A DNA stretch of 64,000 bases from Bacteroidota bacterium (GTDB lineage: Bacteria > Bacteroidota > Ignavibacteria > UBA10030 > UBA6906). Position numbers and translations under genes: made by a program. Shown here in pieces: positions 2,632 through 56,823 of this stretch (its first letter is position 1; each line of letters opens with the position of its first letter). The notes beneath the pieces were generated by a model, which was not told the DNA's origin, ran no database searches, and was given only the letters and a program-made list of their open reading frames with translations. The stretch spans positions 9,026 through 73,025 of the forward strand of contig DATJAS010000044.1 of the NCBI GenBank assembly GCA_035516035.1, given 5' to 3'.

Positions 2632-3399
2632 TCATTTCAGTATCCCCCGCTGCAGCGTCCTGACAGCGGCGGCAAATGAGACCAGCGTGAAGATCGCGAA
2701 CGCGGCCGCTTCAGTCGCTACGCGGGCGGTATCCCCCACGCCGATCGTCGCGTAGCGAAGCACGTCCGTGTGCCATGTGAGCGGGTTCACCGTGGCGAAT
2801 ACACGCAGAACGATGGGAAGCCCCGCAACAGGATAAAACAGGCTCGACCCGAACATGAGGAAAAAGTAGACCAGGTTGATGAACGTGTTGAACATGTCGT
2901 TCCGCCTGATGCGGAGGGCGAACGTCGAGAGGAAGAAGAACCACCCGGCGGTCCCCAGCACCACGCCGGGGAGTATCAGCGACGCGGTCTCCCAGCGGAT
3001 TTGTATGCCGAGCAGGAGAGAGGCGAGCCCCACAGTGATCAGCGCCTGCACGATCGCCAGGACGGAATTGAACAGGATCTTCCCGAAGAGAAATTCACCC
3101 CGCGTCATCGGGTACGTGAGGAACTCGTAGAGGATGCCGTTGTCCCTGTCAACGAAGAAGCCATACGACGTGTTGATCGCGAACCCGAATCCCGACATGG
3201 AAAGAACGCCGGCCAGGAAGAACGCGTTATAGCCCACAGTCGCCCCGTCGGCCGTGATCCCTGATCCGAGCGCCCTGTTGAGACCCACCCCGAAGAGGAG
3301 GAGGTAGGAGAGAGGGATGATGAGGTCGGCGAACGCCCATGTCAGGCTCGTTGTCCGGATCAGGAACTCGCGGTACATGACGGCCAGTATCATTCTCAT
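2632..3399 (-). CDS. ABC-2 type transporter permease
   Basis: 255-aa polytopic membrane protein with about 6 hydrophobic helices. It sits immediately downstream of an ABC ATPase with a 4-nt overlap. Confidence 0.7.
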   Translation of the reverse strand: MRMILAVMYREFLIRTTSLTWAFADLIIPLSYLLLFGVGLNRALGSGITADGATVGYNAFFLAGVLSMSGFGFAINTSYGFFVDRDNGILYEFLTYPMTRGEFLFGKILFNSVLAIVQALITVGLASLLLGIQIRWETASLILPGVVLGTAGWFFFLSTFALRIRRNDMFNTFINLVYFFLMFGSSLFYPVAGLPIVLRVFATVNPLTWHTDVLRYATIGVGDTARVATEAAAFAIFTLVSFAAAVRTLQRGILK

Positions 3400-4367
3400 G
3401 GCCGGCCTCCCGTCACCGGCCGGTTCCTGCCGAGGAGACCGATAAAGGCGTCCTCGAGCGAGCCGCTTGAGACCTCGAGTGAGATCAGCGCGCCGATCGT
3501 CCCGGCGACGCGCAACACTTCAAACGGGGAAATGAGCTTCCCGTTCACGGTCATTTCTACGGTCGTGTGGCGGCGCTCGAGGCTCGTCAGGGGGAGGCGG
3601 GCGAGGACGGCATACGCCTCATCGGCAATCGACTCGTACGTGGCGCGGATGGCGATCACCGTGCTGCCCAGCGTCTTGATCCGGTCGGGCGTACCGACTG
3701 CCGCGACTCTCCCCCGGTCGATGATCGCGATCGTGTCGCAAAGCTCCTCCGCCTCCTCGAGCAGGTGCGTCGTCAGGAGAATCGTGCGTCCGCGGCGCGA
3801 TTCCTCCCGGATGGCGTCCAGCGTGGCCCGCCGGTTGATCGGGTCCATCCCCGTGGTCGCCTCGTCGAGGAAGACCACCGGCTTCTCGATCATGAAGACT
3901 TTCGCAACCTGCACGCGGCGCTTGAGGCCGCCGCTAAGGTCGATGACCTTCTTCTTCCTGTACTCCCCGAGGCCAAACTGGGCGATGACGCGCTCTGCCG
4001 CCTGCGGCATGTCTCGCCGGGGAAGTGAATGGAACCGCGCGTATGTGGCCAGGTTGTCCTCGACCGAGAGGAACACCTCGACGGCATTCTCCTGCAGCAC
4101 CGCACAGATATTCTTCCTGACCTCGTACGGTTTTCTCGCAACGTCCAGCCCCAGGAGCGTAGCCCGGCCGGATGTCGGGCGGATGAGCGTCGTGAATATC
4201 CTCAGGAGCGTTGTCTTCCCTGCCCCGTTCTCCCCCAGGAGCCCGAATATCTCCCCCTTCCTCACCGTAATTGAAAGCCCGTCGAGCGCCCGCACAGGCG
4301 AAGCGGACTTCTCGTCATAGACTTTCACGATGTCCACGGCCTCTATGGCCGGGACTTCCTGGTTCAT
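3396..4367 (-). CDS. ABC transporter ATP-binding protein
   Basis: Walker A GENGAGKTTLLRI, ABC signature LSGGLKRRVQVA, and Walker B VVFLDEATTGMD. Confidence 0.88.
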   Translation of the reverse strand: MNQEVPAIEAVDIVKVYDEKSASPVRALDGLSITVRKGEIFGLLGENGAGKTTLLRIFTTLIRPTSGRATLLGLDVARKPYEVRKNICAVLQENAVEVFLSVEDNLATYARFHSLPRRDMPQAAERVIAQFGLGEYRKKKVIDLSGGLKRRVQVAKVFMIEKPVVFLDEATTGMDPINRRATLDAIREESRRGRTILLTTHLLEEAEELCDTIAIIDRGRVAAVGTPDRIKTLGSTVIAIRATYESIADEAYAVLARLPLTSLERRHTTVEMTVNGKLISPFEVLRVAGTIGALISLEVSSGSLEDAFIGLLGRNRPVTGGRP

Positions 4368-4562
4368 GGCGCAAATCTCGGGCGGAATGAGGAAAATTGG
4401 AGAGAATTCACTTGAAATGTATCACGAAACCTCCCAATTATCAAGGAGGAGAGCCCAGACCCTGCGAACAGAGGGATACAGGGCGTAACAATTTCGTAAC
4501 AAACCTGTCAACCTGCCGTAGCAGTATGAAGAAGTACTGTGTAACGCAGAATTGACAACGTC

Positions 4563-6449
4563 ATGAGCCTGATCAATATCCCCCGGCCCGTAAGGGTGGG
4601 GTGTCTCATTGCGGCCCTCTCGGCCGCGGCAACCGCCGGCGAGAAGCAGATTGTCACGCTCAAAGACCTGAGCGACGTGCAGGTCAAGTGCGCCGGCTTC
4701 CAGGTTCCGCAGGAGACGATCGTCCACATCCGCTCGACCGGCGCCGGCTCTGATAACAGGTGGTCGTTCCACGGCAACGACCACGGCGGCGACATGAACA
4801 CCTACTCCTGGATCATCGATGCTGCCACGCGCAACGTCGTCTGGGAGATGACGATGGACAACAGCTCCCGGTCAAAGGACGACAGGACATTCGACGGCAC
4901 CGTGACGCTCCCCGCCGGGGCATACGAGGCCTATATTGCCGCCGCGGTCTTCTCGTACAACTCCGCGTTCACGCACATCACAATGACCGTCGACCACAGG
5001 AAAAATCCTCTCTTTGGCGACGTGAAGACGGAGAAAAGAAACTTCTTCAACTGGATCACGGGTTGGTGGTCCGACGACATCGCCAAGGCATGGAACAAGA
5101 GGTCGAAGAACTGGGAGCTTGACCTCCTCGTGGACGAATCGGTGCCCGTCGCCATGTTTACTCCCCCGAAGGAACGCGACAACGCAGTCATCAAGGCGAC
5201 CGGCCTCGGCGACAACGAGGTCGTCAGGAAGTCGTTTGAGCTCGGCGAGCCCTCTACGCTCTTCATCTACGCCCTGGGCGAGGGGGATCGTGAAAACCAG
5301 CTCTCAGACCACGGGTGGATCGTCAACCAGGCCGACCGTCGCCGGGTCTGGGAGATGCAGCTGCGCAACAGCACCTACGCGGGGGGAGCCGACAAGAACA
5401 TTCGCTACGTCAACACGGTCACGCTGCCGAAAGGGGAATATACGCTCTACTACGTCACGGACGGGACCCACTCCTGCGCCTGCTGGAACGCCAATCCCCC
5501 GTACGACCCGCTGGACTACGGAATCACGGTCGCCATCGACGCGGAGAAGGAGCGGAAGGCGTTCCGGCTGATTCCGAACCAGGAAGACAAGAATGTTATC
5601 GTCAGCCTCATCCACCCGAAGAACAGCGACTACCTCTCTGAAGGGTTCACGCTGAAGAAAGAAGCGCGCGTGCGGGTCTACGCGATCGGCGAGCGCGACA
5701 ACTCGCGCCGGTCAATGGCGGACTTCGGGACGATCATGGACGCCAAGACCCGTGAGAAGGTCTGGACGATGGACGTCGACCGGACCTCGCACGCCGGTGG
5801 CGCCTCGAAGAACCAGTATATCGACGAGATCATCACGCTTCCCCGCGGGAGCTACGTCGTCACGTACACCACCGACGACTCGCACACCTACAACGACTGG
5901 AACGACGACCCGCCGTACGACAAGGAACACTACGGCATCACCGTCATGGGGGTCGGGGAGAACTGGGATCCCTCGGTCGTGGGGAAATACACGGATGAAC
6001 GGGACCGGAACGTGATCGCGCAGATCATCCGCCCCGGAAACGATGTGGACGCGACAAAGCCGTTCTCGCTCGACAGGACGACGCGCATCCGCGTGTACGC
6101 CATCGGAGAGGGGATGGACCGCGAGATGGACGATTACGGGTGGATCGAGGACGCGAGGACAGGCACGGTCATCTGGGAGATGACGTACCGCATGACGTTC
6201 TACGCGGGAGGCGACAGGAAGAACAGGATGGTGAACACGACGCTCATCCTGGACAAGGGGGACTACCGCCTCCGCTTCAAGAGCGACGACTCGCATTCCT
6301 ACGGCGACTGGAACGCCGATCCCCCCGACGACCAGCAGTTCTGGGGAATCACGCTCTACAGGGACGAGTCCACTCCTGGACATCCCGGGCCGGGCGTTCC
6401 CGCACCGCCCAATCCACCGGAGCCTCCTGACGATCAGGACGATAATTGA
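4563..6449 (+). CDS. secreted protein with four ~125-aa tandem internal repeats (unrecognised domain)
   Basis: N-terminal signal-like segment (CLIAALSAAATAGE). There are four repeats, each carrying VWEMT..., AGG(A/D)KN..., TLPxGxY and DDSHxYxDWNxDPPYDxxxYGITV. The C-terminal tail is Pro-rich and acidic. Confidence 0.6.
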   Translation: MSLINIPRPVRVGCLIAALSAAATAGEKQIVTLKDLSDVQVKCAGFQVPQETIVHIRSTGAGSDNRWSFHGNDHGGDMNTYSWIIDAATRNVVWEMTMDNSSRSKDDRTFDGTVTLPAGAYEAYIAAAVFSYNSAFTHITMTVDHRKNPLFGDVKTEKRNFFNWITGWWSDDIAKAWNKRSKNWELDLLVDESVPVAMFTPPKERDNAVIKATGLGDNEVVRKSFELGEPSTLFIYALGEGDRENQLSDHGWIVNQADRRRVWEMQLRNSTYAGGADKNIRYVNTVTLPKGEYTLYYVTDGTHSCACWNANPPYDPLDYGITVAIDAEKERKAFRLIPNQEDKNVIVSLIHPKNSDYLSEGFTLKKEARVRVYAIGERDNSRRSMADFGTIMDAKTREKVWTMDVDRTSHAGGASKNQYIDEIITLPRGSYVVTYTTDDSHTYNDWNDDPPYDKEHYGITVMGVGENWDPSVVGKYTDERDRNVIAQIIRPGNDVDATKPFSLDRTTRIRVYAIGEGMDREMDDYGWIEDARTGTVIWEMTYRMTFYAGGDRKNRMVNTTLILDKGDYRLRFKSDDSHSYGDWNADPPDDQQFWGITLYRDESTPGHPGPGVPAPPNPPEPPDDQDDN

Positions 6450-6457
6450 GACTGCCA

Positions 6458-6487
6458 AAGCCCCGACAATGATGCCGGGGCTTTTTC
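6458..6487 (+). terminator. rho-independent terminator
   Basis: 8-bp stem aagccccg/cggggctt with a 10-nt loop, followed by TTT. It lies 9 nt after the stop of the repeat-protein gene. Confidence 0.6.
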
Positions 6488-6609: not shown

Positions 6610-9027
6610 ATGCCGAAGGCCTTGGTTTCTCTCACACTTCTCACCCTCCTCCTTCCCCCATCCGGTTCATCAGCATTACAGCAAGCCGGAGCGACTCTCG
6701 ACACTCAACGTCTCCTCGCCGAAGCCGACTCTCTCCTGAAAATCGGCAATGCGGATAGCGCGGGATCACTCTATTCATCTGTCGCATCAGTGGAGCCCGC
6801 CAATCTGCGCGCGCTCATCGGGCTGGGCAAATCGGCTCTCGGGGTGCGCGACTGGGACCGCGCGGTGGATGCGGCAGATAAGATCTCCGGAATCGATCCG
6901 GCGAGCCTCGCCGGTCACTATATCGAAGCTGTCGCACGCAGGGAGAAGGGTTCAATTGCATTCCGTGAACCGGGCTACTTCGGGCCTTCCATCGTCGGCG
7001 ACTGGGGGCGTGCCCGGCGGCTCTTTACATGGGTGGTGACCCGCGATTCGGGATTTGAGGACATCCTTTGCCAGTTTGCGCTTCTGAACAGGTACGAGGG
7101 GAATAAGCAGGGTGCGCTTGACCTTATTTCCCGGGAGGCGGCTCTCCGCCCCGAACTTATAGAGCCACAGGTGGGAAGATACAGGCTGTATCAGTACTTC
7201 ATCGCGACGGAAGACTCCGCACATGTCGTCGACTGGCTTCGAACGCTCCCGGGGGACCTGCCGCGCTACTTTGTCGGTGAACTCTGGAGGCGCCACGGGA
7301 ACGTTGCGGGGGCCGATTCGGTCTTTAACATGTTGCTTGCCAGGGCCGGTGAAGTCTCTCCCCAGGCTCTCCGTCTCTCCCTGGCGCGTCTCATGATGAA
7401 ACAGGGAAGGGGCGAAGAGGCCGAGAAGGAATACTGGAAGGGCATACATTCGGCCAACACCAGGCTCGGACTCGCGTTGCTGCTCGAAGACGTGAAATAT
7501 ATCATCTCAGACCAGGAGCTCTATCTCTTCAGGAGCATCGATTCGGTGAGCGGGCAGAGGCAGTTTTTCAGGAGTTTCTGGAACTTCAGGAATCCTTCGC
7601 TGGCCCTGAAGACGAATCAGCGGCTCCAGGACCACGTTCGCCGTTTCGTGTATGCCGAGGAGCATTTCGAATACTATGGCGCACGCACTCGGTTTAACAA
7701 TCCTGACAGGCAAAAGGAGCTGCGATTCCCCGCCGCATTCGCGCTGAACGAGAGATTTAACGACAAGGGTCTCATCTATATTCGCCAGGGTGATCCCGAT
7801 GATGTAATACGTCACAGCTATGCACCGTTTGACGACGAGAATTCTAAAGGCGAGGGCTTTGTTGCTCCACTGCCGAGGCATATCGTCACAAACTACGGCG
7901 CGCCGACCCCGGACGAGCAAATGCATGCAATCGAGAAGGCACAGAGGGACTATGACGCCCACTGGCTCTTGTCGTACGCCCATGACGAATTCGAATCATG
8001 GCTCTACGATGCCACGCCCGAATCGCCAAGGATGGTGTTCCATTTCCAGATGCACAACGCGGTCAGGAACAACTGGAGGCTGGTCCCCATACCCGCTCTG
8101 GACGCGATGCTGGACGAACTGGGCGTCTGGGATTCGAAATACACGCGAATGTACGATGGCATGGAAGTGGAGAGATCCGTGCTGCAGGCGCAGATCAGCA
8201 ATGATTCGCGGGACATCGTGCGGTATGCGCTTTCGACGGAACGCCAGACCTGGGCTAAAGCGACTGAGGTATTTCACTTTCCCCACGCCATCGACGTGTT
8301 CCGGGCGCCACGGGGGCAGTGTCTTGTCGATGTAAGCTATGCGATTCCGCTCGCGGCACTGTCGCGCTCCGTCCCCGATACCGTGAAATCAATCCCCGTG
8401 GAAGTGGGTTTTTCGCTCGTCGACGCCAAATCGCTGCACGCCGCAAGCCAGCTTGATACGATTCAAGTGAGTCTTTCACGGTCTCGCACCGGGATGCTCC
8501 TCGATCTTGTGAGGTACACCGTCCCGCCGGACTCCTATGCCGTCTCCATGCATTTACGACCCCTCGTGGGAGACAAAATCGCGACATGGAGAGAGAAACT
8601 GCGTGCCAGTGACTTCTCACGCCCGGGCCTCAGGGTTAGTTCAATACAACTCTTGAGACCATCTCCTGAAAAAGGCGCACTTGACATTGACGGCGTGAAA
8701 GTTGTCCAGAGTCCCCTTTCAACACATGTCAGGACCGAGAAGCTCCTGGTTTATTTCCAGATGTACCATCTTGTGGCTGACGTAGACGGTGTCACTTCCT
8801 ATCGGACAGAATGCACACTTCAGCCGTTCGACGACCCCGACCCGGCGAAAGGGATTCTCGTTTATTCGAAGGACAAGACAGGGTCCGAGGAGATGGCCGC
8901 GCAGTTCTGCCAGATCGATGTGCACTACGTTCCCGCCGGTCACTACCGGCTCATCGTCAAAGCCACAGATCGAAAACGCGTGGAATCGTGTGTCGCTGAA
9001 CGTGAGCTGCATCTTGTCAAGCCGTAA
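6610..9027 (+). CDS. secreted TPR-like protein with divergent GWxTD-like domain
   Basis: Signal peptide MPKALVSLTLLTLLLPPSGSSA and TPR-like N-terminus. The middle segment FWNFRNPSLALKTNQRLQDHVRRFVYAEEHF...NERFNDKGLIYIRQGDPDD matches the GWxTD-domain pattern as I recall it, with GW replaced by RF. Confidence 0.4.
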   Translation: MPKALVSLTLLTLLLPPSGSSALQQAGATLDTQRLLAEADSLLKIGNADSAGSLYSSVASVEPANLRALIGLGKSALGVRDWDRAVDAADKISGIDPASLAGHYIEAVARREKGSIAFREPGYFGPSIVGDWGRARRLFTWVVTRDSGFEDILCQFALLNRYEGNKQGALDLISREAALRPELIEPQVGRYRLYQYFIATEDSAHVVDWLRTLPGDLPRYFVGELWRRHGNVAGADSVFNMLLARAGEVSPQALRLSLARLMMKQGRGEEAEKEYWKGIHSANTRLGLALLLEDVKYIISDQELYLFRSIDSVSGQRQFFRSFWNFRNPSLALKTNQRLQDHVRRFVYAEEHFEYYGARTRFNNPDRQKELRFPAAFALNERFNDKGLIYIRQGDPDDVIRHSYAPFDDENSKGEGFVAPLPRHIVTNYGAPTPDEQMHAIEKAQRDYDAHWLLSYAHDEFESWLYDATPESPRMVFHFQMHNAVRNNWRLVPIPALDAMLDELGVWDSKYTRMYDGMEVERSVLQAQISNDSRDIVRYALSTERQTWAKATEVFHFPHAIDVFRAPRGQCLVDVSYAIPLAALSRSVPDTVKSIPVEVGFSLVDAKSLHAASQLDTIQVSLSRSRTGMLLDLVRYTVPPDSYAVSMHLRPLVGDKIATWREKLRASDFSRPGLRVSSIQLLRPSPEKGALDIDGVKVVQSPLSTHVRTEKLLVYFQMYHLVADVDGVTSYRTECTLQPFDDPDPAKGILVYSKDKTGSEEMAAQFCQIDVHYVPAGHYRLIVKATDRKRVESCVAERELHLVKP

Positions 9028-9346: not shown

Positions 9347-10666
9347 ATGCCCCGATTTTCATTTGTGAACGATCTATTCAATCGCATCGACCCGCGCATC
9401 AAGGCAATCCTGACGCGGCGTCCGGTTGTCACGTACGCGGTGGCCGGTGCGCTTGCGCTCCTGCTCATCCTCTACGTCGCGCTCCCGGCCGGCGCCGCAA
9501 AATCGGATATCACCGTCGTCCCTGCGCGGGGCGTCTTTCTCGTCACCGTGACTGTCAGCGGCGAGCTCCAGGCGAAGAACTCGATCAACGTGATGGGCCC
9601 GCAGGATGCCCAGCGGGCAAACATCTGGCAGATGAAGCTGAGCAACCTCATCCCCGAAGGGACCGTGGTGAAGAAAGGGGAGATCGTCGCCGAACTGGAT
9701 AAGTCTGAGATCACGGGCAAGTTCAAGGAATCGCAGCTTAACGTCCAGAAGCTGGATGCCCAGTTCCTCCAGACGGTGCTCGATAGCGCGCTGACCCTCT
9801 CGCAAGCGAGGGACGATTTGGTAAACCTCGCGTACACCGAGGAAGAAAAGCGCCTTGCCCAGGAGGAATCCGCGTACGAGGCACCCGCGATGAAACGGCA
9901 GGCGGAGATAGAGTTCGAACGTGCGAAGCGCGGACTCGAGCAGGCGAAGCAGAACTACGTCACGAAGCGGAAACAATCGGTGGCCAAGACACAGGCGGCG
10001 GGCGCTGACCTGATGAAGGAGAAACAGCACCTGGAGATGTACCAGAAAGCGATGGAGGAGTTTACGATCCGGGCCCCCGCGGACGGGATGGTGATCTACG
10101 CGCGGGAATGGAACGGGAAAAAGAAAGTGGTGGGAAGCACGATCAACGCCTGGGATCCCACGGTCGCGACGCTCCCCGACCTGCGCGAGATGGAGTCGAT
10201 TACGTACGTGAGCGAGCTTGATATCCAGAAGCTCGCCGTCGGCCAGAAAGTGACGCTCGGCCTCGACGCGGACCCTGCGAAGAAGCTGACGGGTGTCGTG
10301 GTTGCCGTGGCGAACATCGGGGAGCAGAGGCCGAACTCCGATTCCAAGGTCTTTGAAGTGCGGATCAAGGTCAACGAATCTGATACAACGCTGCGGCCGG
10401 CCATGACCACCGCAAACGAGATCCTCGTGGCAAAACAGGACAGCGTCCTGTCGGTCCCCCTGGAGTGCGTCCATACCGAGGGGGGCGTGACGTTCGTGTA
10501 CAGGAGGAGCGGCGGTTCAGTCGTGAAACAGGAAGTGAAAACCGGGTTGATTAACGAGAACGCGACGGTGATCCTCGCGGGTGTGACGGATCGCGACGTC
10601 CTCCTGTTAACAACGCCCCCAGATGCGGGGAAATTCAAGACCGTCCTCCTTGCGTCCCCCCTGTGA
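9347..10666 (+). CDS. HlyD-family efflux periplasmic adaptor (membrane fusion protein)
   Basis: N-terminal TM anchor, a long coiled-coil region and a C-terminal beta-barrel-like region. It overlaps the FtsX permease gene by 4 nt. Confidence 0.75.
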   Translation: MPRFSFVNDLFNRIDPRIKAILTRRPVVTYAVAGALALLLILYVALPAGAAKSDITVVPARGVFLVTVTVSGELQAKNSINVMGPQDAQRANIWQMKLSNLIPEGTVVKKGEIVAELDKSEITGKFKESQLNVQKLDAQFLQTVLDSALTLSQARDDLVNLAYTEEEKRLAQEESAYEAPAMKRQAEIEFERAKRGLEQAKQNYVTKRKQSVAKTQAAGADLMKEKQHLEMYQKAMEEFTIRAPADGMVIYAREWNGKKKVVGSTINAWDPTVATLPDLREMESITYVSELDIQKLAVGQKVTLGLDADPAKKLTGVVVAVANIGEQRPNSDSKVFEVRIKVNESDTTLRPAMTTANEILVAKQDSVLSVPLECVHTEGGVTFVYRRSGGSVVKQEVKTGLINENATVILAGVTDRDVLLLTTPPDAGKFKTVLLASPL

Positions 10667-12057
10667 ACCTGCCGGGAAACAGATTCGTTGCGCGCTGGCT
10701 CTCGACGGGCACGGCCCTCCAGCTTGCGCAGAGCGCTCGCATCGCGGTCGAGGCGATCACGCACAACCGGCTTCGCGCCGTCCTGACCTCTCTCGGGATC
10801 GTCTTCGGCGTGGGGTCGGTGATCTCCATGCTGGCCGTCGGGACCGGGGCCAAGCAGGAGATCCTCGAACAGATGAAGCTCCTCGGGGCTAACAACATCA
10901 TCATCACCCCGGTCGTCGAGCAGGAGGAGGGGAAGGTCGAGGAGGAGCCAGCGACGGGCAAGAAAGAGAAAAAACGGTTCAGCCCCGGCCTGACGCTTGA
11001 CGACGGCGAAGGGATATTGAGCACGCTCCCCGGGATTGAATTCGTGAGCCCGGAAGTGGTCATGGAGACCATGATCGTGCGCGAGGGGCTCAAGCGCACT
11101 GGGAAGCTCGTTGGCGTCGATTCGATATACTTTGTCACAACGGATTTTGCCCTCGAGCGGGGGCAGCTCTTCTCGCGGGCCCAGATGAGCCAGGCGCTCC
11201 CGGTTGCGGTAATCGGCCACGGGATCAAGACGAGGTTCTTCTCCACTCAGGATCCCATCGGCGGCAGGATCAAATGCGGGAGCCTCTGGCTCACGGTGGT
11301 CGGTGTGTTGCAGGAACGGCGGCTGAGCAAGGACAACATACAGCATCTCGGCCTGCGCGATTTCAACTTCGACGTGTACACGCCCGTGAAGACGCTTCTT
11401 CTCCGCTACAAGAACCGGACGCTGGTCACGCGGCTCGACGTGCAGAAGGCCGCGCGGGAAACCGGCGGGGACGACAATAACGGCGAGCAGAAGAAGGCGG
11501 TCAATTACCACCAGCTCGACCGGCTGGTCGTCCGCGTGGCGAATACGGACCAGATGGCGGGCCTGGCGGAGGTCATCAGCAGGATGCTCGAGCGCCGGCA
11601 CAATAACGTGGTCGATTTCCAGGTCATGGTCCCCGAGCAGCTCCTCCGGCAGGCGCAGCGGACGCGTGAGATATTCAATATTGTCCTCGGCGCGATCGCC
11701 TCGATCTCGCTGATCGTGGGGGGTATCGGCATCATGAATATCATGCTCGCCTCGGTGATGGAGCGGACAAAGGAGATCGGCATTCGCCGGGCTGCGGGAG
11801 CGACGAAGCGCGCAATCGTGCTCCAGTTCCTGAGCGAGGCCATGATCATCAGCTTCACGGGGGGAATCATGGGCATTATTCTCGGCTTCGCTATCAGCTC
11901 CGCGATTGAGACGTTCGCAGGCGTCCAGACGATCGTGACGTTCCTCTCCGTGCTTGTCGCGTTTGTGATATCTATATCGGTGGGGATCCTCTTCGGCATC
12001 CTCCCCGCGCGGCGCGCGGCCGAACAGGATCCGGTTGCGTGCCTGCGGTACGAATAA
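10663..12057 (+). CDS. ABC transporter permease, FtsX/MacB-like (no ATPase domain)
   Basis: N-terminal TM, a large periplasmic MacB-like domain, and C-terminal FtsX helices carrying the GIGIMNIMLASVMERTKEIGIRRAAGATK motif. Confidence 0.8.
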   Translation: MNLPGNRFVARWLSTGTALQLAQSARIAVEAITHNRLRAVLTSLGIVFGVGSVISMLAVGTGAKQEILEQMKLLGANNIIITPVVEQEEGKVEEEPATGKKEKKRFSPGLTLDDGEGILSTLPGIEFVSPEVVMETMIVREGLKRTGKLVGVDSIYFVTTDFALERGQLFSRAQMSQALPVAVIGHGIKTRFFSTQDPIGGRIKCGSLWLTVVGVLQERRLSKDNIQHLGLRDFNFDVYTPVKTLLLRYKNRTLVTRLDVQKAARETGGDDNNGEQKKAVNYHQLDRLVVRVANTDQMAGLAEVISRMLERRHNNVVDFQVMVPEQLLRQAQRTREIFNIVLGAIASISLIVGGIGIMNIMLASVMERTKEIGIRRAAGATKRAIVLQFLSEAMIISFTGGIMGIILGFAISSAIETFAGVQTIVTFLSVLVAFVISISVGILFGILPARRAAEQDPVACLRYE

Positions 12058-12074
12058 ACTACCGGACAGAACGA

Positions 12075-13544
12075 ATGAAGAACTCGGCCCTCCTGCTTAT
12101 GCTCCTGGCGACCGGCACGGCGCGCCTCCCCGCCCAGGTCGACACGACGTGGTTGACGCTCCACGACTGCGTGCGCATGGCGCGCGAGCAGGGCCCCCTC
12201 GGCGCCATGGCCCGGAGCTCTCTGGAGGAGAAAGAGTCAACCTACCGCTCGTTCATGCGCGGGCTTCTCCCACAGCTTTCACTCCAGGGGGATGCTCCCG
12301 GCTACACCCATTCCATCAACCCCGTCGTCCTCCCCGACGGGACGACGATGTTCATCCCCCAGAGCGAAGCATCTTCCGCGGCCAGCCTCGCGCTCACGCA
12401 GAAGATCCCGTTCACCGGGGGCCTCCTCTCCGTCCTCTCCGGGCTGAACAGGATCGACATAATGGAGTCGCGGACGCACTACTATAACGCGAAGCCCCTC
12501 TCCCTGTCGCTCACGCAGCCAATTTTCCAGCTCAACACGATGCGCTGGGACGAGGAGGCGCAGGATCTCCACTACCGTATGGCCCCGCGCGAGCTGGCCG
12601 AAGCGCTCGAAGACTGCGCGGCTGATGTGACGAACAAGTTTTTCGACCTTCTCGTGTCGTCGATGAACGCCTCAAACGCCTCGCTCAACGTGGCAATCAA
12701 CGATACCCTCTACAGGATCTCGCGCGGCAGGTTTAACGTCGGCAAGATCGCGGAGAATGACCTGCTCCAGAGCGAACTTGCCTACCTTAGCGCGAAGACC
12801 GACTTCGAGAACGCTGAGGTAGGGCTCTCCCGGTCGCGAGAAACGCTCAGGGCGGCGCTCGGCATGTCGCCGGTGGTCACGTTTGCACTCGTGCCTCCCC
12901 GGGAGATCACCGGCGGGCGCGTCGAACCTGACTCGGCGCTCGCGGCGGCGAGGCGCTACCGGAGCGACATGCTCAATTACGAACTTCAGCGCCTGACGGC
13001 AGAGCGGGGGGTGATCCAGGCGAAATCGGACAACGCGTTTGTCGCGACACTGAACGCCAGCATAGGGTACAACCAGACTGCCCCGGTGCTCCCCGATGCC
13101 TACCGGCAGCTCCTTGACCAGCAGGCGGTGAGCTTGGGGTTCACGTTCCCGATATTCCGGTGGGGAGCGGGGAGCGCTGCGGTGGATGCGGCGCTTGCCG
13201 AGCAGAAGCGCACGGAAGTCTCGGTGGCGCAGCAACGGTTCGACGCGGAGCAGGAGGTCCTCTACGAAGCGGCCAGGCTGAACCTCCTGCGAGAGCAGGT
13301 GGCTGTCGCGGCTAAGTCCGACACGATTGCACAGCGGCGGTTCGACGTGGCGAAGGATCGCTACGTCATCGGCAAGATCGATATACCGATCCTCTTTATC
13401 GCGCAGAGCGAGAAAGACGCGGCGCGGCGGGCGAATATCCAGACGCTCTGGAATTACTGGGCGAGTTACTTCCGGCTCCGGCGGCTCACGCTCTTCGATT
13501 TCGAGACCGGGGAGCCGCTTGTGTCGCTCGAAGGGGGGCGGTAG
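12075..13544 (+). CDS. TolC-family outer membrane efflux protein
   Basis: Signal peptide MKNSALLLMLLATGTARLPAQ. It has the two-repeat OEP architecture. Start moved to the Met at 12075, which removes the overlap with the upstream gene. Confidence 0.75.
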   Translation: MKNSALLLMLLATGTARLPAQVDTTWLTLHDCVRMAREQGPLGAMARSSLEEKESTYRSFMRGLLPQLSLQGDAPGYTHSINPVVLPDGTTMFIPQSEASSAASLALTQKIPFTGGLLSVLSGLNRIDIMESRTHYYNAKPLSLSLTQPIFQLNTMRWDEEAQDLHYRMAPRELAEALEDCAADVTNKFFDLLVSSMNASNASLNVAINDTLYRISRGRFNVGKIAENDLLQSELAYLSAKTDFENAEVGLSRSRETLRAALGMSPVVTFALVPPREITGGRVEPDSALAAARRYRSDMLNYELQRLTAERGVIQAKSDNAFVATLNASIGYNQTAPVLPDAYRQLLDQQAVSLGFTFPIFRWGAGSAAVDAALAEQKRTEVSVAQQRFDAEQEVLYEAARLNLLREQVAVAAKSDTIAQRRFDVAKDRYVIGKIDIPILFIAQSEKDAARRANIQTLWNYWASYFRLRRLTLFDFETGEPLVSLEGGR

Positions 13545-24740: not shown

Positions 24741-26081
24741 TCAGTGGAAATTCATGATGTGGTAACTTTCCCACCACTGTGAGATCGAGTAGGTCTTCTT
24801 GATGAAGCCAGGATAGAACGGAGGTCTGACAGAGGGATCGGCAAGTCGAACGTCGTACTTGTAACGCTTGAGGAAACCGCTCTGGAGCGTGGCGCTCCCG
24901 TTGAACGTGCCGACGGGTCCGCGTGAGTTCTGCACGATCGACCCGAGGATGTTGAGGTCTCCGTTGATGGGGCGCGTTGAATAGTTCTGCGCGGTGAACG
25001 AGCCTGTGCGTGCAAAAACGCTCCCCTGGATTGTCCTGCCGGTCGCGCCCGGGATGTCATCGGCCACGATGACGTTGTTGTTGGCGACCAGTCCCAGCAT
25101 GTCCGAGCTCGCGCCGTTGCGCGGATCGTGCTGGTAGAAAATGTCCTGCTGGATCACGATGTTGTTCGTCGATGCCGTGGGCGTGCTGTAGGAGGCGATC
25201 GTGAGCCTGCCGTCGAGCGTCCCCTGCACGTTCACGACGCCCGTTCCCATGATCACGCCGTTAAAATTCGGATCGCCGAGCCCGACCGTGTCGATGATCG
25301 GGCCGAGCTGCGTCTGGCGCACGTAGGCAACGCCGTCTCCCTCGGCGGGCCCCCCGGGGTCGAGCGTGACCCAGATATCCGTGGTGTATTTCTTCCCGTT
25401 CGGTGAGGCGGCGGCGGCGGCCAGTCCGCTCATGTCGCTCGGGAACTGGATCTGGGCGACCCCGGTTTCCGGTGCCGGGGGATTCTGGAAAATCGCCTTG
25501 TTGGTATACGTTGTGCCGCCGATCACCTGGGACTTGCCCAGCGGCGGGATGAGCCCCTTCGACGTGGTCACCTTCTGGAGGAACACCGGGCTTCCGCTCA
25601 TCGTCAGGTTATCGTTGGAATGGACCCTCCCCCAGATAGAATCTCCGGTAATCCAGAACACGCCGTTCTCCAGGTTGGTCATCCAGGCGAAAAGCGAGAA
25701 GCTGTTGTCGGAGCTGGAAGCCACCGTCACGTCGACCGTGTCGCCGTACGCGTTGCCGTCGACAAACGACGAGGAAACGCTCCTGAGGAGCTTCCCTCCG
25801 GGGACCGGGGAAACCGTCGCGGTAAACGAGCCGTCGAACGGGCTTCCCGAAAACGACTGCGTCATAGTGACGGGAGCTGAGGATCCCCAGCTTGTGTCGC
25901 GGTAGAGCCGGGAGAGTGCGGCGTTTGCCCCGGCGAGCGCCAGGTTGTGCGAGGCCGTCATCGCCGCGTATGCCGACATGTTGGTCACGGAACGCGTCGC
26001 CGCGCCGCCGAGGTTGAGAATCGCGTACCCCATCAACGAGCTGAATCCCAGGATCAGGATTAACGCCGCCCTTCCCCCCAT
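24741..26081 (-). CDS. membrane-anchored secreted protein, PilX_N-like N-terminus (putative minor pilin-associated protein)
   Basis: N-terminus GRAALILILGFSSLMGYAILNLGGAATRS...ALAGANAALSRL resembles the pilus-assembly PilX N-terminal domain pattern. The large C-terminal domain is beta-rich and Gly/Thr/Asn-rich. Confidence 0.4.
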   Translation of the reverse strand: MGGRAALILILGFSSLMGYAILNLGGAATRSVTNMSAYAAMTASHNLALAGANAALSRLYRDTSWGSSAPVTMTQSFSGSPFDGSFTATVSPVPGGKLLRSVSSSFVDGNAYGDTVDVTVASSSDNSFSLFAWMTNLENGVFWITGDSIWGRVHSNDNLTMSGSPVFLQKVTTSKGLIPPLGKSQVIGGTTYTNKAIFQNPPAPETGVAQIQFPSDMSGLAAAAASPNGKKYTTDIWVTLDPGGPAEGDGVAYVRQTQLGPIIDTVGLGDPNFNGVIMGTGVVNVQGTLDGRLTIASYSTPTASTNNIVIQQDIFYQHDPRNGASSDMLGLVANNNVIVADDIPGATGRTIQGSVFARTGSFTAQNYSTRPINGDLNILGSIVQNSRGPVGTFNGSATLQSGFLKRYKYDVRLADPSVRPPFYPGFIKKTYSISQWWESYHIMNFH

Positions 26082-53892: not shown

Positions 53893-56823
53893 TTGCGCAA
53901 GTTCCTCATAGCCTGTGCGATCGCCGGGCTCGCGCCGTCGTTTTCCCGGGCGCAGCTCTTTGACCGGGAAACCGCGCATTTGCGCCTCGTCTACTACTCG
54001 AAGGCCCACGAGTATCTCGTCCCCCACATCGTGAGCTGCTTCGAGAACGCCTATCGGTTTGAGCATAAGCTTTTCGACTACACCCCGTCGGAACGGGTCA
54101 GCGTCCTGATGCAGGATTTCGGGGACTACGCCTCGGGTGCCGCAAACACCGTCCCGTTCAACGTCATGAACATCGGCATCGCCCCGTTCAGCTACGTCTA
54201 TGAGACGATGCCCGCCGAAGAGCGGTTCAACCTGATGATGATGCACGAGATGGTCCACATCGTCACAATGGACAAGGCATCGTCACAGGACGCGTTCTTC
54301 CGGTCGTTGTTCTGCGGGAAGGTCGCGCCGATCCCGGAGCAACCCCTCTCGATGATCTACGGCTACCTCACGGGCCCCCGCTGGTATGCGCCGCGCTGGT
54401 ACGTCGAGTCCATTGCCGTCTTCATGGAGACGTGGATGGCGGGGGGGCTCGGGCGCGCGCTGGGGGCCTACGACGAGATGGTCTTCCGGACGATGGTGCG
54501 CGACTCGAGCTACATGTACGACATGGTGGGCCTGGAGGCGGAGGGGACGAAGGTGGATTTCCAGGTCGGCGCGGCGTCGTACCTCTACGGGACGCGATTT
54601 GTGAGCTACCTGGCACTGCGCTACGGTCCTGACGCGCTGCTCCGGTGGTTCATCCAGACGCGGGGAAGCGACGCAGGGTTCGCTGCGCAATTCGAGGATG
54701 TCTACCACACATCGCTGGACGACGAGTGGGGGGCCTGGATCGCGTGGGAGCATCGATGGCAGCAGGCCAACCTCGACTCGGTCCGCCGATACCCCGTGAC
54801 CGTCTGCCGGCCCGTGACGCCCGGCGCGGTCGGGTCCGTCTCCCGCTCATTTTATGACCCCATCGCACGGAGAGTCTATGTCGCGGTGAACTACCCCGGC
54901 CAGACGCCGCACATCGCGTCGCTCGACACACGCACGGGTGCCGTGGAGAACCTTCGCGAGGTGAGGGGGGGAGCCCTCTTCTACGTGACGTCCCTGGCGT
55001 TCGATCCGGCGGGCCGCACGCTGTTTTATACGGCGGACAACAATCACTGGCGCGATCTCTACGCGTACGACATCCCCTCGGGCTCGACGCGCCTCCTGAT
55101 CAAGGACGTGCGCACTGGCGATTTCGCGTTCAACAGGAAGGACCGCTCGCTCTGGGGCGTCCGCCATTTCAACGGGATATCGACGCTCGTGCGCATCCCC
55201 GCTCCCTACACGGAGTGGAACCAGGTCTTCTCGTTCGACTACGGGAAGGACATCTTCGACATCGACATCTCCCCCGACGGCGAGTCGCTTGTCGGCGCGC
55301 TCACGCACGTGGACGGGCGTCAGTTCCTGGTCAGGATGAAGACCGCCGCGCTGCTCTCGGGTAACCCGGCGTGCGACACGCTCTACGATTTCGTCAACAG
55401 CACGCCCGCCAATTTCGTCTTCTCGGAAGATGGCGCACGCCTCTATGGCAGCTCGTTCTACAGCGGCGTCTCGAATGTGGTCCGGTACGATATCGCCGCG
55501 AAAAGAATGGACTGGGTGACAAACACCGAGACGGGCCTCTTCCGGCCCCTCCCGATGGCCGGGGACTCCCTCCTGGCGTTTCATTTCACCGGGAGGGGCT
55601 TTCAGCCGGTGATGATCGCCGACAGGACCGTCACGGACGTGAGCCCGATCAGCTACCTCGGCCAGGCAGTCGTCGACAGCTTCCCCGTGCTCAGGACATG
55701 GGCGCTCCCCCCGCCGTCGGTGGTCAATCCCGATTCGGTGACGATCGCTTCCGGAGAATACCGCCCCGCAGATCACATCCGGCCCGCGTCGCTCTACCCG
55801 GTGGTTGAAGGATACAAGGTCTATCCGGCGTACGGCTTACGGTTTAACCTCTCCGACCCCCTCTCCCTTCACCGCATCGATGCGACCGCTTCGTATACGC
55901 CGAACCGGACTGTGCCGGGCGGCGAGCGGCTCCACGCGGCGTTTCACTACGACTTCTGGGAGTGGGGAGTGAACGGGAGCTACAACGGGGGGGACTTCTA
56001 CGACCTCTTCGGTCCGACGCGCCTGAGCCGGAAAGGGTCCTCCCTCGGAACGACGTACAGGGACTACTGGACGTTCGAAGACCCTGAGAAGCTTGAATTC
56101 TCTGCCGCGCTGCAGGGATACTGGGGGCTGCAGAACCTGCCCGAATACCAGAACGTGCTCGCCCCGTTTGCCACGCTCTATTCGCTCAACGCCTCTGTGA
56201 ACTACTCGCTGATGACGCGATCGCTCGGAGCGGTTGAGGAGGAGAGCGGGTACGCCTGGGAGATCGCCTCGATGAACGGGTACGTGAACGGCACGGCGTA
56301 CCCCCGCGTCTACGGGACGCTCGCCCTGGGCACGCTCCTCCCCCTGGATCATTCATCCGTCTGGCTCCGTGCCGCCACCGGCTGGTCGCCGGGCAAGAGG
56401 GAGGACCCGTTCGCGAATTTCTATTTCGGCGCATTCGGGAATAACTGGGTCGACCACGGAGATTTCCGGCGCTACCGCGAGTACTATGCCTTCCCGGGCG
56501 CCTCGCTCAACTCGATCGGCGGGACGAATTTCGGCAAGGCTCTGGTGGAATGGGTGATCTCTCCCGTGAGGTTCAGGCGGTTCGGCGGCGAGTCCTTCTA
56601 CTGCACATGGGTGCAGCTCGTGCTCTTCGGGGGAGGGGTTACGACCAACATGGACGCGCCGTCGCTTGGACAGACGGTGGTCGACGCCGGTGCGCAGGCC
56701 GACTTCCGCCTTGTGCTCTTCTCCGCGCTCGAGTCGACGTTCTCCCTGGGCTGGGCGGCGGCCGCCGAGAAGGATGAGCGGCTGACGCGTGAGTTCATGG
56801 CCTCCCTGAAGATCCTGCGCTGA
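53893..56823 (+). CDS. large secreted protein with N-terminal HExxH (putative zinc peptidase, MA-clan-like) region and TolB-like beta-propeller
   Basis: Signal peptide MRKFLIACAIAGLAPSFSRAQ. HEMVH at about residue 115. The middle region has propeller-like repeats (DxSPDG..., FSEDGARLYG). Length is 976 aa. Confidence 0.45.
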   Translation: MRKFLIACAIAGLAPSFSRAQLFDRETAHLRLVYYSKAHEYLVPHIVSCFENAYRFEHKLFDYTPSERVSVLMQDFGDYASGAANTVPFNVMNIGIAPFSYVYETMPAEERFNLMMMHEMVHIVTMDKASSQDAFFRSLFCGKVAPIPEQPLSMIYGYLTGPRWYAPRWYVESIAVFMETWMAGGLGRALGAYDEMVFRTMVRDSSYMYDMVGLEAEGTKVDFQVGAASYLYGTRFVSYLALRYGPDALLRWFIQTRGSDAGFAAQFEDVYHTSLDDEWGAWIAWEHRWQQANLDSVRRYPVTVCRPVTPGAVGSVSRSFYDPIARRVYVAVNYPGQTPHIASLDTRTGAVENLREVRGGALFYVTSLAFDPAGRTLFYTADNNHWRDLYAYDIPSGSTRLLIKDVRTGDFAFNRKDRSLWGVRHFNGISTLVRIPAPYTEWNQVFSFDYGKDIFDIDISPDGESLVGALTHVDGRQFLVRMKTAALLSGNPACDTLYDFVNSTPANFVFSEDGARLYGSSFYSGVSNVVRYDIAAKRMDWVTNTETGLFRPLPMAGDSLLAFHFTGRGFQPVMIADRTVTDVSPISYLGQAVVDSFPVLRTWALPPPSVVNPDSVTIASGEYRPADHIRPASLYPVVEGYKVYPAYGLRFNLSDPLSLHRIDATASYTPNRTVPGGERLHAAFHYDFWEWGVNGSYNGGDFYDLFGPTRLSRKGSSLGTTYRDYWTFEDPEKLEFSAALQGYWGLQNLPEYQNVLAPFATLYSLNASVNYSLMTRSLGAVEEESGYAWEIASMNGYVNGTAYPRVYGTLALGTLLPLDHSSVWLRAATGWSPGKREDPFANFYFGAFGNNWVDHGDFRRYREYYAFPGASLNSIGGTNFGKALVEWVISPVRFRRFGGESFYCTWVQLVLFGGGVTTNMDAPSLGQTVVDAGAQADFRLVLFSALESTFSLGWAAAAEKDERLTREFMASLKILR

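Follow-up and report, generated by a model that had tools for sequence, protein, structure and literature searches.

The gene described here (positions 4563..6449, forward strand) lies in a 64,000-nt stretch of contig DATJAS010000044.1 from a Bacteroidota bacterium, the whole of which is referred to as the window, and encodes a protein, predicted to be exported, that is built from four homologous copies of a domain without a curated family model (Table 1). The reading frame runs over 628 codons from the first ATG to a stop codon, just as an earlier reading of the DNA from its letters (the sequence-only reading) had it, with the open reading frames (ORFs) on the opposite strand being short spurious frames of the kind expected for 62% G+C DNA. 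What that reading observed is real and its description is accurate in part, and its interpretation, in which the protein was offered as a candidate adhesin, carbohydrate- or ligand-binding module or surface-layer component, is partly supported (see below).

Table 1. The repeat gene, the domains of its product and the flanking signals, in window positions
Feature	Position	Strand	Remarks
Complete coding sequence, predicted exported four-repeat protein	4563..6449	+	628 aa; from the ORF list and translation; stop codon 6447-6449
Signal peptide, aa 1-25	4563..4637	+	Predicted cleavage between ATA and GEK; read from the sequence and the homologue pattern
Repeat 1 (R1), aa 26-192, degenerate copy	4638..5138	+	Without the AGGxxKN and DDSH..WN..PPxD apical loops
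Trp-rich helix in R1, aa 163-180, FFNWITGWWSDDIAKAWNKR region	5049..5102	+	AlphaFold2 secondary structure
Repeat 2 (R2), aa 193-330, canonical	5139..5552	+	AGGADKN (273-279), DGTHSCACWNANPPYD (300-315); 180 bits against the domain profile
Repeat 3 (R3), aa 331-468, canonical	5553..5966	+	AGGASKN (411-417), DDSHTYNDWNDDPPYD (438-453); 196 bits against the domain profile
Repeat 4 (R4), aa 469-606, canonical	5967..6380	+	AGGDRKN (548-554), DDSHSYGDWNADPPDD (575-590); 190 bits against the domain profile
Pro-rich acidic C-terminal tail, aa 607-628	6381..6446	+	Predicted disordered, clade-specific
Terminator-like hairpin	6457..6486	+	9-bp stem AAAGCCCCG/CGGGGCUUU, then U-run; starts 8 nt past the stop codon
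Divergent intergenic region, 195 bp, presumed promoter region	4368..4562		Common to the upstream ABC ATPase gene

The homology of the four repeats, claimed by the sequence-only reading, is borne out by Smith-Waterman alignment against 300 shuffles (z = 35-43 when R2-R4 are aligned to one another, z = 9-14 when R1 is aligned to any of them), with the W[ET]M anchor falling at aa 97, 266, 404 and 541 and the domain copies being contiguous without linkers. The repeat period is 137-138 aa for R2-R4 and 167 aa for R1 rather than the ~125 aa first proposed. The motifs AGGxxKN and DDSH..WN..PPxD..[WY]GI[TV] are confined to R2-R4, such that AGGxxKN, which had been ascribed to every repeat, is present in these three and missing from R1. 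Likewise the ending DDSHxYxDWNxDPPYD(x3)YGITV, said to close each repeat, fits R3, nearly fits R4 (…DPPDDQQFWGITL), fits R2 loosely (DGTHSCACWNANPPYDPLDYGITV) and is absent from R1. R1 retains VWEM and LPAGAYEAY, its beta7-beta8 loop being replaced by a low-confidence stretch (aa 146-160, with low predicted local distance difference test (pLDDT) scores at 154-160) followed by the Trp-rich helix, for which the family consensus is FFxWFxxWWSDDIxKxWxKRS, with the final strand WELDLLV, the counterpart of WGITV, coming after the helix. Compared with the R2-R4 domain profile R1 scores 36 bits, aligning only to profile positions up to ~115.

An alignment of R2-R4 from nine proteins has 17 invariant columns, in R3 numbering G46, E47, D57, W71, G82, G83, K86, N87, G99, Y101, D108, H111, W116, N117, P121, D123 and G128, which gives each canonical copy the set GE, D, W, GG..KN, G.Y, D..H, WN and P.D. 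The most conserved repeat across the family is R4. Identity between R3 and the R3 of other species is 59-78%, as against 28-41% between R3 and the paralogous repeats, such position-specific conservation indicating that the duplications are ancient and that the copies are not interchangeable.

Export of the protein is supported by its N-terminus, which has the shape of a type-I signal peptide (MSLINIPRPVRVGCLIAALSAAATA followed by GEKQ at the cleavage point) with small residues at -3 and -1, and which together with a conserved mature start, GE[KRQ]xxxSL, recurs in 41 of 47 aligned family members. This call, which agrees with the signal-like N-terminus noted earlier, is a reading of the sequence and of homologue conservation; in the AlphaFold2 model a helix is placed at aa 8-22. 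The lipobox pattern [LVI][ASTVI][GAS]C finds no match in the protein, with Cys14 lying within RVGC and not being conserved, and the family consensus at the end of the signal peptide is AxA before GEK, not a lipobox. The Pro-rich acidic tail described by the sequence-only reading is present, with pLDDT below 50 for residues 604-628, and it is this disordered tail that forms the C-terminus, no Pfam match to a type IX secretion system (T9SS) C-terminal domain (Por_Secre_tail) being found in the protein. That the lineage has a T9SS is indicated by Por_Secre_tail on GSDH proteins neighbouring the repeat gene in related loci.

The family to which the protein belongs is large, with more than 1,162 homologues of the window protein at E<=1e-3, 2,199 proteins at E<=1e-50 for a second query with a more distant member, and 1,178 clusters at 50% identity among 1.84 billion representatives for the domain profile. 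Among the best 120 homologues almost all are 600-670 aa and all are annotated 'hypothetical', three being shorter with at least one of these flagged as partial. The family is carried by at least 186 GTDB species representatives; the carriers among those listed are all metagenome-assembled genomes (MAGs) labelled Ignavibacteria, Ignavibacteriota or Bacteroidota, some of them 'Chlorobiaceae' or 'Chitinophagales'. The closest relatives are fen MAGs (78-80% identity), and the named matches are all MAGs except for records named Fodinibius/Aliifodinibius sp. Counting domains in the best 150 proteins gave 133 with four, 10 with three, five with five, two with six and one with two, some of the short forms probably being fragments, with the six-repeat forms including Aliifodinibius/Fodinibius sp. 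records (Balneolales). The repeat-number variation that the sequence-only reading had raised does exist (3-6 repeats) but is rare given the 133 of 150 representatives with four. Position-specific hidden Markov models identified the order R1-R2-R3-R4 in 62 of the best 150 and a start with R1 in most of the others, family members as a rule opening with a specialised R1 and closing with an R4-type domain. Near-constant copy number and length over more than 1,000 homologues together with the strong purifying conservation argue against a variable-copy adhesin.

The view that no known family can be assigned holds, with nothing above threshold in Pfam, NCBIfam or the PDB sequences. Searched singly against Pfam, R2, R3 and R4 matched no family even at E<=1 and R1 matched only X25_BaPul_like at 14.4 bits (cutoff 27), such that the single repeats, on which the sequence-only reading had staked its claim, gave no curated match and the claim stands. 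With the whole protein, DUF5013 (PF16405) reached 24.3 bits over residues 103-134, below its gathering threshold of 28.5, while AMPK1_CBM (CBM48, PF16561) reached 20.6 bits, below its threshold of 26.8, and was not matched by single repeats. A faint DUF5013 match was seen in one homologue, and AMPK1_CBM recurred below threshold in three (19.8-21.3 bits), always on the G.Y...DD hairpin. NCBIfam (release of June 2026) returned no family for the whole protein, and the PDB sequences were matched neither by the protein nor by a 27-sequence domain profile or a full-length profile. No TPS domain (Haemagg_act) or fused catalytic domain was found in the protein, and 10 family representatives including the longest showed no additional Pfam domain above threshold. 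The new domain merits a family model.

AlphaFold2 was run on a 47-sequence alignment and for the whole chain gave a mean pLDDT of 83 and a predicted template modelling score (pTM) of 0.73, with four all-beta domains, the R1 helix and the disordered tail, while R3 modelled as a single domain (pLDDT 89, pTM 0.84) was all beta with eight strands. The domain is predicted to be an eight-stranded beta-sandwich with generic fold neighbours only, and in its fold the protein varies on a type already well known, that of exported proteins made of beta-sandwich repeats. The pTM of the whole chain and the contiguous domain boundaries suggest a defined inter-domain arrangement. In R3 the strands run beta3 (38-48), beta4 (55-63), beta5 (69-72), beta6 (87-96), beta7 (99-106) and beta8 (128-133), and the polar and aromatic invariants map to the beta3-beta4 hairpin, the beta5-beta6 loop and the long ordered beta7-beta8 loop. 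The up-and-down topology of the sandwich would place these three loops at the same end of the domain, from which each canonical repeat may carry one conserved apical binding site, possibly stabilised by Ca2+.

Comparison of the single domain with the PDB using Foldseek gave as best match the p24 GOLD domain (5azy_B, E = 8.5e-4, TM 0.44/0.59), followed by haemagglutinin heads, the C-terminal domain of Clostridium perfringens enterotoxin (C-CPE), the ColG collagen-binding domain (CBD) and APRIL. GOLD, C-CPE (TM 0.41-0.47) and the ColG CBD (TM 0.32-0.43) may resemble the repeat in fold, being sandwiches of eight to nine strands used for ligand binding, with identities to it of 7-17%, a root-mean-square deviation of 5-10 Å and no sequence-level relationship, and the long ordered beta7-beta8 loop of the repeat with DDSH..WN..PPxD has no verifiable counterpart in them. 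The full-length model matched only multi-domain CUB, F5/8C, CBM32 and double-jelly-roll proteins at TM <= 0.2, the CUB matches being neuropilin CUB (E = 5e-7), C1r/C1s and enteropeptidase at low TM, and Pfam CUB found no match at any threshold with either the whole protein or single repeats. The Ca2+ site of CUB domains is Glu...Asp...Asp-x-Ser-Asn, to which E47...D57...D108-D-S-H111 of the repeat may correspond in spacing.

In other lineages the repeat gene is accompanied by a recurrent set of partners. In 22 of 80 GTDB loci an Omp85 barrel is encoded immediately downstream on the same strand, its tblastn match starting within 170 nt of the stop codon of the repeat gene. This Ignavibacteria-type barrel is ~475 aa (Omp85 29.1 bits against a cutoff of 24) with a signal peptide, an acidic N-terminus, a partial DUF5686 match and a terminal Phe, and no match to Pfam POTRA was found in the partner barrels. 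In the order Balneolales the barrel is followed 13 nt later by a six-repeat homologue and then by a DUF4097 Toastrack, the Balneolales and Ignavibacteria-type barrels being 38% identical over 374 residues (E = 5e-77) and a second Omp85 in the Balneolales locus being unrelated to the partner barrel. Five metagenome loci anchored on the barrel run barrel, optional genes, LiaF_C-like, DUF4097 and repeat protein, and in three other barrel-anchored loci the barrel and repeat protein are adjacent, one of these being the Balneolales contig re-found and one continuing with DUF4097. Short contigs with 570-aa homologues have the order LiaF_C-like, DUF4097a, repeat protein, DUF4097b and a LiaI/LiaF-like transmembrane protein, with DUF4097b being orthologous to the Balneolales DUF4097. 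The DUF4097 Toastrack partners score 63.9 bits (cutoff 22.9) and the LiaI/LiaF-like four-helix transmembrane protein 38.9-44.5 bits (cutoff 27), the LiaF_C and LiaG scores of the partners being below the curated cut-offs. Signal-like N-termini on DUF4097 and LiaF_C-like proteins (L150:4699-6568, L085:10585-11385, L170:910-1914 and L170:3690-4487) imply an extracytoplasmic location for the Toastracks of these clusters. Partners that stay together while their gene order is rearranged are typically coupled in function, and gene neighbourhood thereby provides good evidence that the repeat gene is likely to be coupled to the barrel and Toastrack partners.

Omp85 proteins lacking POTRA domains ('noNterm') have been described, their function being unknown, and are sometimes paired with lipoprotein genes (Heinz and Lithgow, 2014, PMC4104836; PMC11358297), as in Leptospira where a DUF1566 lipoprotein gene lies beside the paralogues of groups 2 and 3 (PMC11358297). 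The Leptospira proteins are like the partner barrel in having next to them a gene whose product is exported but is not itself a barrel. The partner barrel is however of DUF5686 type, unlike the DUF5982 of noNterm Omp85, with some versions having a bactofilin-like domain at the N-terminus, and its partner is a four-domain beta-sandwich protein rather than the DUF1566 lipoprotein of Leptospira. Unlike in the noNterm Omp85 loci compared, the pairing with a POTRA-less barrel is absent in the window.

In Lia/Psp envelope-stress systems Toastrack domains have been put forward as docking platforms for proteins, and an intracellular location has been proposed for them (PMC11237479). The orthologues of the repeat gene are Lia/Psp-like in being flanked by genes for DUF4097 Toastrack, LiaF_C-like and LiaI/LiaF-like transmembrane proteins. 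They are unlike Lia/Psp in that no PspA, PspC, LiaS or LiaR was seen with them, in that the hosts are diderm bacteria of the FCB group, and in the signal-like N-termini of the Toastracks, as opposed to the intracellular Toastrack proposed for Lia/Psp. Conversely, the described Lia/Psp systems (LiaF, LiaG, LiaX, LiaI) are without a beta-sandwich repeat protein or Omp85. No account of the combined Omp85-Toastrack-repeat neighbourhood turned up in the literature that could be searched, where DUF5686 gave one paper of no relevance.

The clustering of orthologues with the barrel, two to three secreted Toastracks and a LiaI/LiaF-like protein points to a subunit of an envelope module, and the reading preferred here, if only tentatively, is that the repeat protein could be a scaffold subunit, binding a ligand or Ca2+, within a module linked to the outer membrane. 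The protein would be exported by Sec and remain soluble within the envelope, either in the periplasm or associated with the outer membrane, with the three canonical domains providing three equivalent apical binding sites and R1 acting as a specialised N-terminal module. It would serve as a binding or scaffolding subunit alongside the POTRA-less Omp85 barrel and the periplasmic Toastracks, the outer-membrane-linked module so formed having a role in envelope maintenance or stress. In the window clade the repeat gene would have become solitary and have gained its disordered Pro-rich tail. Overall the protein is more likely to be a cell-envelope component than an adhesin.

A number of observations weigh against this proposal. 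The window gene has its own terminator, and no homologue of the barrel or of a Toastrack lies within the 64-kb window, such that the adjacency seen elsewhere does not extend to the window gene. From the side of the barrel, the repeat gene was present in the flanks of only nine of 80 barrel-anchored metagenome loci, and related barrels of ~550-565 aa in other Ignavibacteria MAGs are solitary, indicating that the barrel family is broader than the repeat-protein family and not always clustered with it. Around three distant homologues that were looked up the module genes are absent and the neighbours unrelated, and many of the linked loci are phylogenetically related, with the counts therefore overstating the number of independent events. 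The idea of a binding site or of Ca2+ draws on conservation and topology only. Finally, no paper combining DUF4097 and Omp85 was found and no complex of Omp85, Toastrack and repeat protein has been described.

A more ambitious version of the proposal, which is rather doubtful, would put the repeat protein at the core of a trans-envelope module of FCB diderms that is so far undescribed, in which the protein with its three binding sites would work with the POTRA-less Omp85 barrel, periplasmic Toastracks (beta-helix proteins) and a LiaI/LiaF-like inner-membrane protein to sense or repair damage to the outer membrane and periplasm. If true, the module would be the diderm, outer-membrane-linked counterpart of the Firmicute Lia system, with the new domain as its ligand-binding element. 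What POTRA-less Omp85 proteins do is an open question, and there is next to no work on Toastrack/Lia-type stress systems in diderms, such that a large uncurated family recurrently travelling with both offers a testable handle on the function of POTRA-less barrels. Taken alone, the window is a modest finding, a solitary conserved hypothetical envelope protein.

The roles guessed at by the sequence-only reading, adhesin, carbohydrate-binding array or S-layer component, found no positive evidence. A surface role, for instance as an adhesin or surface-layer-like protein, would follow were the repeat protein the cargo of the adjacent Omp85 barrel in the style of two-partner secretion, which would fit the tight same-strand adjacency to a dedicated barrel in two opposite gene orders, the Sec signal and the rigid multi-domain beta architecture of the AlphaFold2 model. 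TpsB transporters recognise their cargo through POTRA domains. The partner barrel is without a POTRA match, the repeat protein lacks the Haemagg_act domain of TPS cargo, and its constant copy number and position-specific conservation are unlike those of adhesins. Many carriers, the window included, are without an adjacent barrel, and the Toastrack and LiaF-type transmembrane partners point to the periplasm and inner membrane, making such secretion through the barrel unlikely.

The predicted fold could also be read as a carbohydrate-binding array in which each canonical repeat is a loop-site carbohydrate-binding module (CBM), the protein capturing or sensing a polysaccharide, possibly the cell's own envelope glycan. 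The clustering of Trp with Asp, Asn, Glu, His and Lys at one apex of a beta-sandwich, the recurrence of AMPK1_CBM on the same hairpin in four family members, the weak matches to DUF5013 and the X25 pullulanase domain, and the CBM32, CBM51 and malectin-like domains among the full-length Foldseek matches are all consistent with this. All of these matches are however below the curated thresholds or, for the full-length model, at TM <= 0.2, and no CBM structure is among the top 50 Foldseek matches of the single domain. In addition, 10 representatives show no further domain with most of the 150 being of about four-domain length, and ~100 loci showed neither a glycoside hydrolase nor SusC/D or other signs of polysaccharide utilisation around the gene. 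Carbohydrate binding is as such distinctly unlikely.

Very improbable is a free-standing periplasmic protein that binds or buffers a metal (Ca2+, Cu or Zn) with its neighbourhoods reflecting inherited gene order only, as might be read from the invariant Asp, His, Asn and Glu constellation of each repeat, a very weak CopC profile match (E = 0.83), a peptidylglycine monooxygenase (PHM) entry among the full-length fold matches and the solitary gene of the window clade in conserved synteny with housekeeping thyA-folA, since the CopC and PHM matches are at noise level, the adjacency to barrel and Toastrack survives rearrangement of the gene order in at least three forms, a persistence that inheritance of the order does not account for, and no metal-resistance or transport genes are consistently nearby.

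The clusters and their barrels vary in other respects. The solitary DUF5686-type barrels at L173:8001-9695 and L175:8001-9644 (547-564 aa) are divergent from pdxJ. At the N-terminus of long barrels of 719-761 aa (L099:6870-9155, L111:2120-4348 and L092:79-2238), in the place expected of POTRA, is a bactofilin-like beta-helix domain (41-55 bits, Pfam cutoff 27.9). In three loci a sigma-54 regulator of the NtrC type (Response_reg + Sigma54_activat + HTH_8) adjoins the barrel/Toastrack/repeat cluster (L125:6120-7607, L099:15594-16973 on the reverse strand and L092:5594-7072 on the reverse strand), reminiscent of the control of psp operons by PspF. Across loci L001-L084, nearly every complete gene of the window clade ends in a Pro-rich tail of 16-44 aa, with 4-11 residues following R4 and no long tail in barrel-abutting genes and other distant relatives, the correlation between tail and barrel adjacency being confounded by phylogeny. 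In one locus of the window clade (L028:12667-13107, reverse strand) a LiaI/LiaF-TM-like gene lies on the strand opposite to the repeat gene and ~5 kb downstream of it, its product being 47% identical to that of L170, and has no counterpart in the window.

In the window itself the hairpin beyond the repeat gene folds as RNA at -16.4 kcal/mol (z = -3.1 against shuffles). A terminator consensus scanner did not call it, probably due to the 10-nt span between the stem arms exceeding the 8-nt loop limit of the scanner. The presence of its own terminator hairpin indicates that the repeat gene is not co-transcribed with the gene downstream, and it is probably monocistronic. The divergent intergenic region has weak sigma-70-like matches on both strands, Bacteroidota-type promoters being outside the scope of the scanner used.

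Upstream and divergent from the repeat gene is a DrrAB-like ABC-2 exporter (window 2632-4367, reverse strand) with thyA and folA beyond it. The ABC ATPase scores 241.8 bits to drrA, and an assignment of the transporter to GldA/GldF was rejected with a GldA score of 154 bits against a cutoff of 402.6. The ABC pair adjoins the repeat gene in ~31 of 84 related loci and thyA-folA lies upstream in ~40 of the 84, a functional link to the latter being rejected as these are housekeeping genes with synteny confined to closer relatives. Downstream is a gene for an 805-aa tetratricopeptide repeat (TPR) protein with a GWxTD domain (window 6610-9027, forward strand; TIGR04514 45.6 bits against a cutoff of 28), followed by HlyD, MacB_PCD/FtsX and OEP efflux genes (window 9347-13544, forward strand). 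A link between the repeat gene and the TPR/GWxTD gene was likewise rejected given the terminator between them and the recurrence of this neighbour in one of 84 loci, where it is 5 kb off on the opposite strand; no paper on GWxTD was found in the literature searched. In related genomes pseudouridine synthase, asparaginase and GSDH genes come next after the repeat gene, and the absence of the TPR/GWxTD and efflux block from this syntenic position suggests that the block is an insertion. Two further window ORFs, 53893-56823 (forward strand, 976 aa) and 24741-26081 (reverse strand, 446 aa), have no Pfam match at E<=1e-5. Elsewhere the window carries housekeeping genes, those for MutS, PFOR, MetH-like/MTHFR, peptidases M3 and M16, GSDH and a SpoIIE phosphatase.

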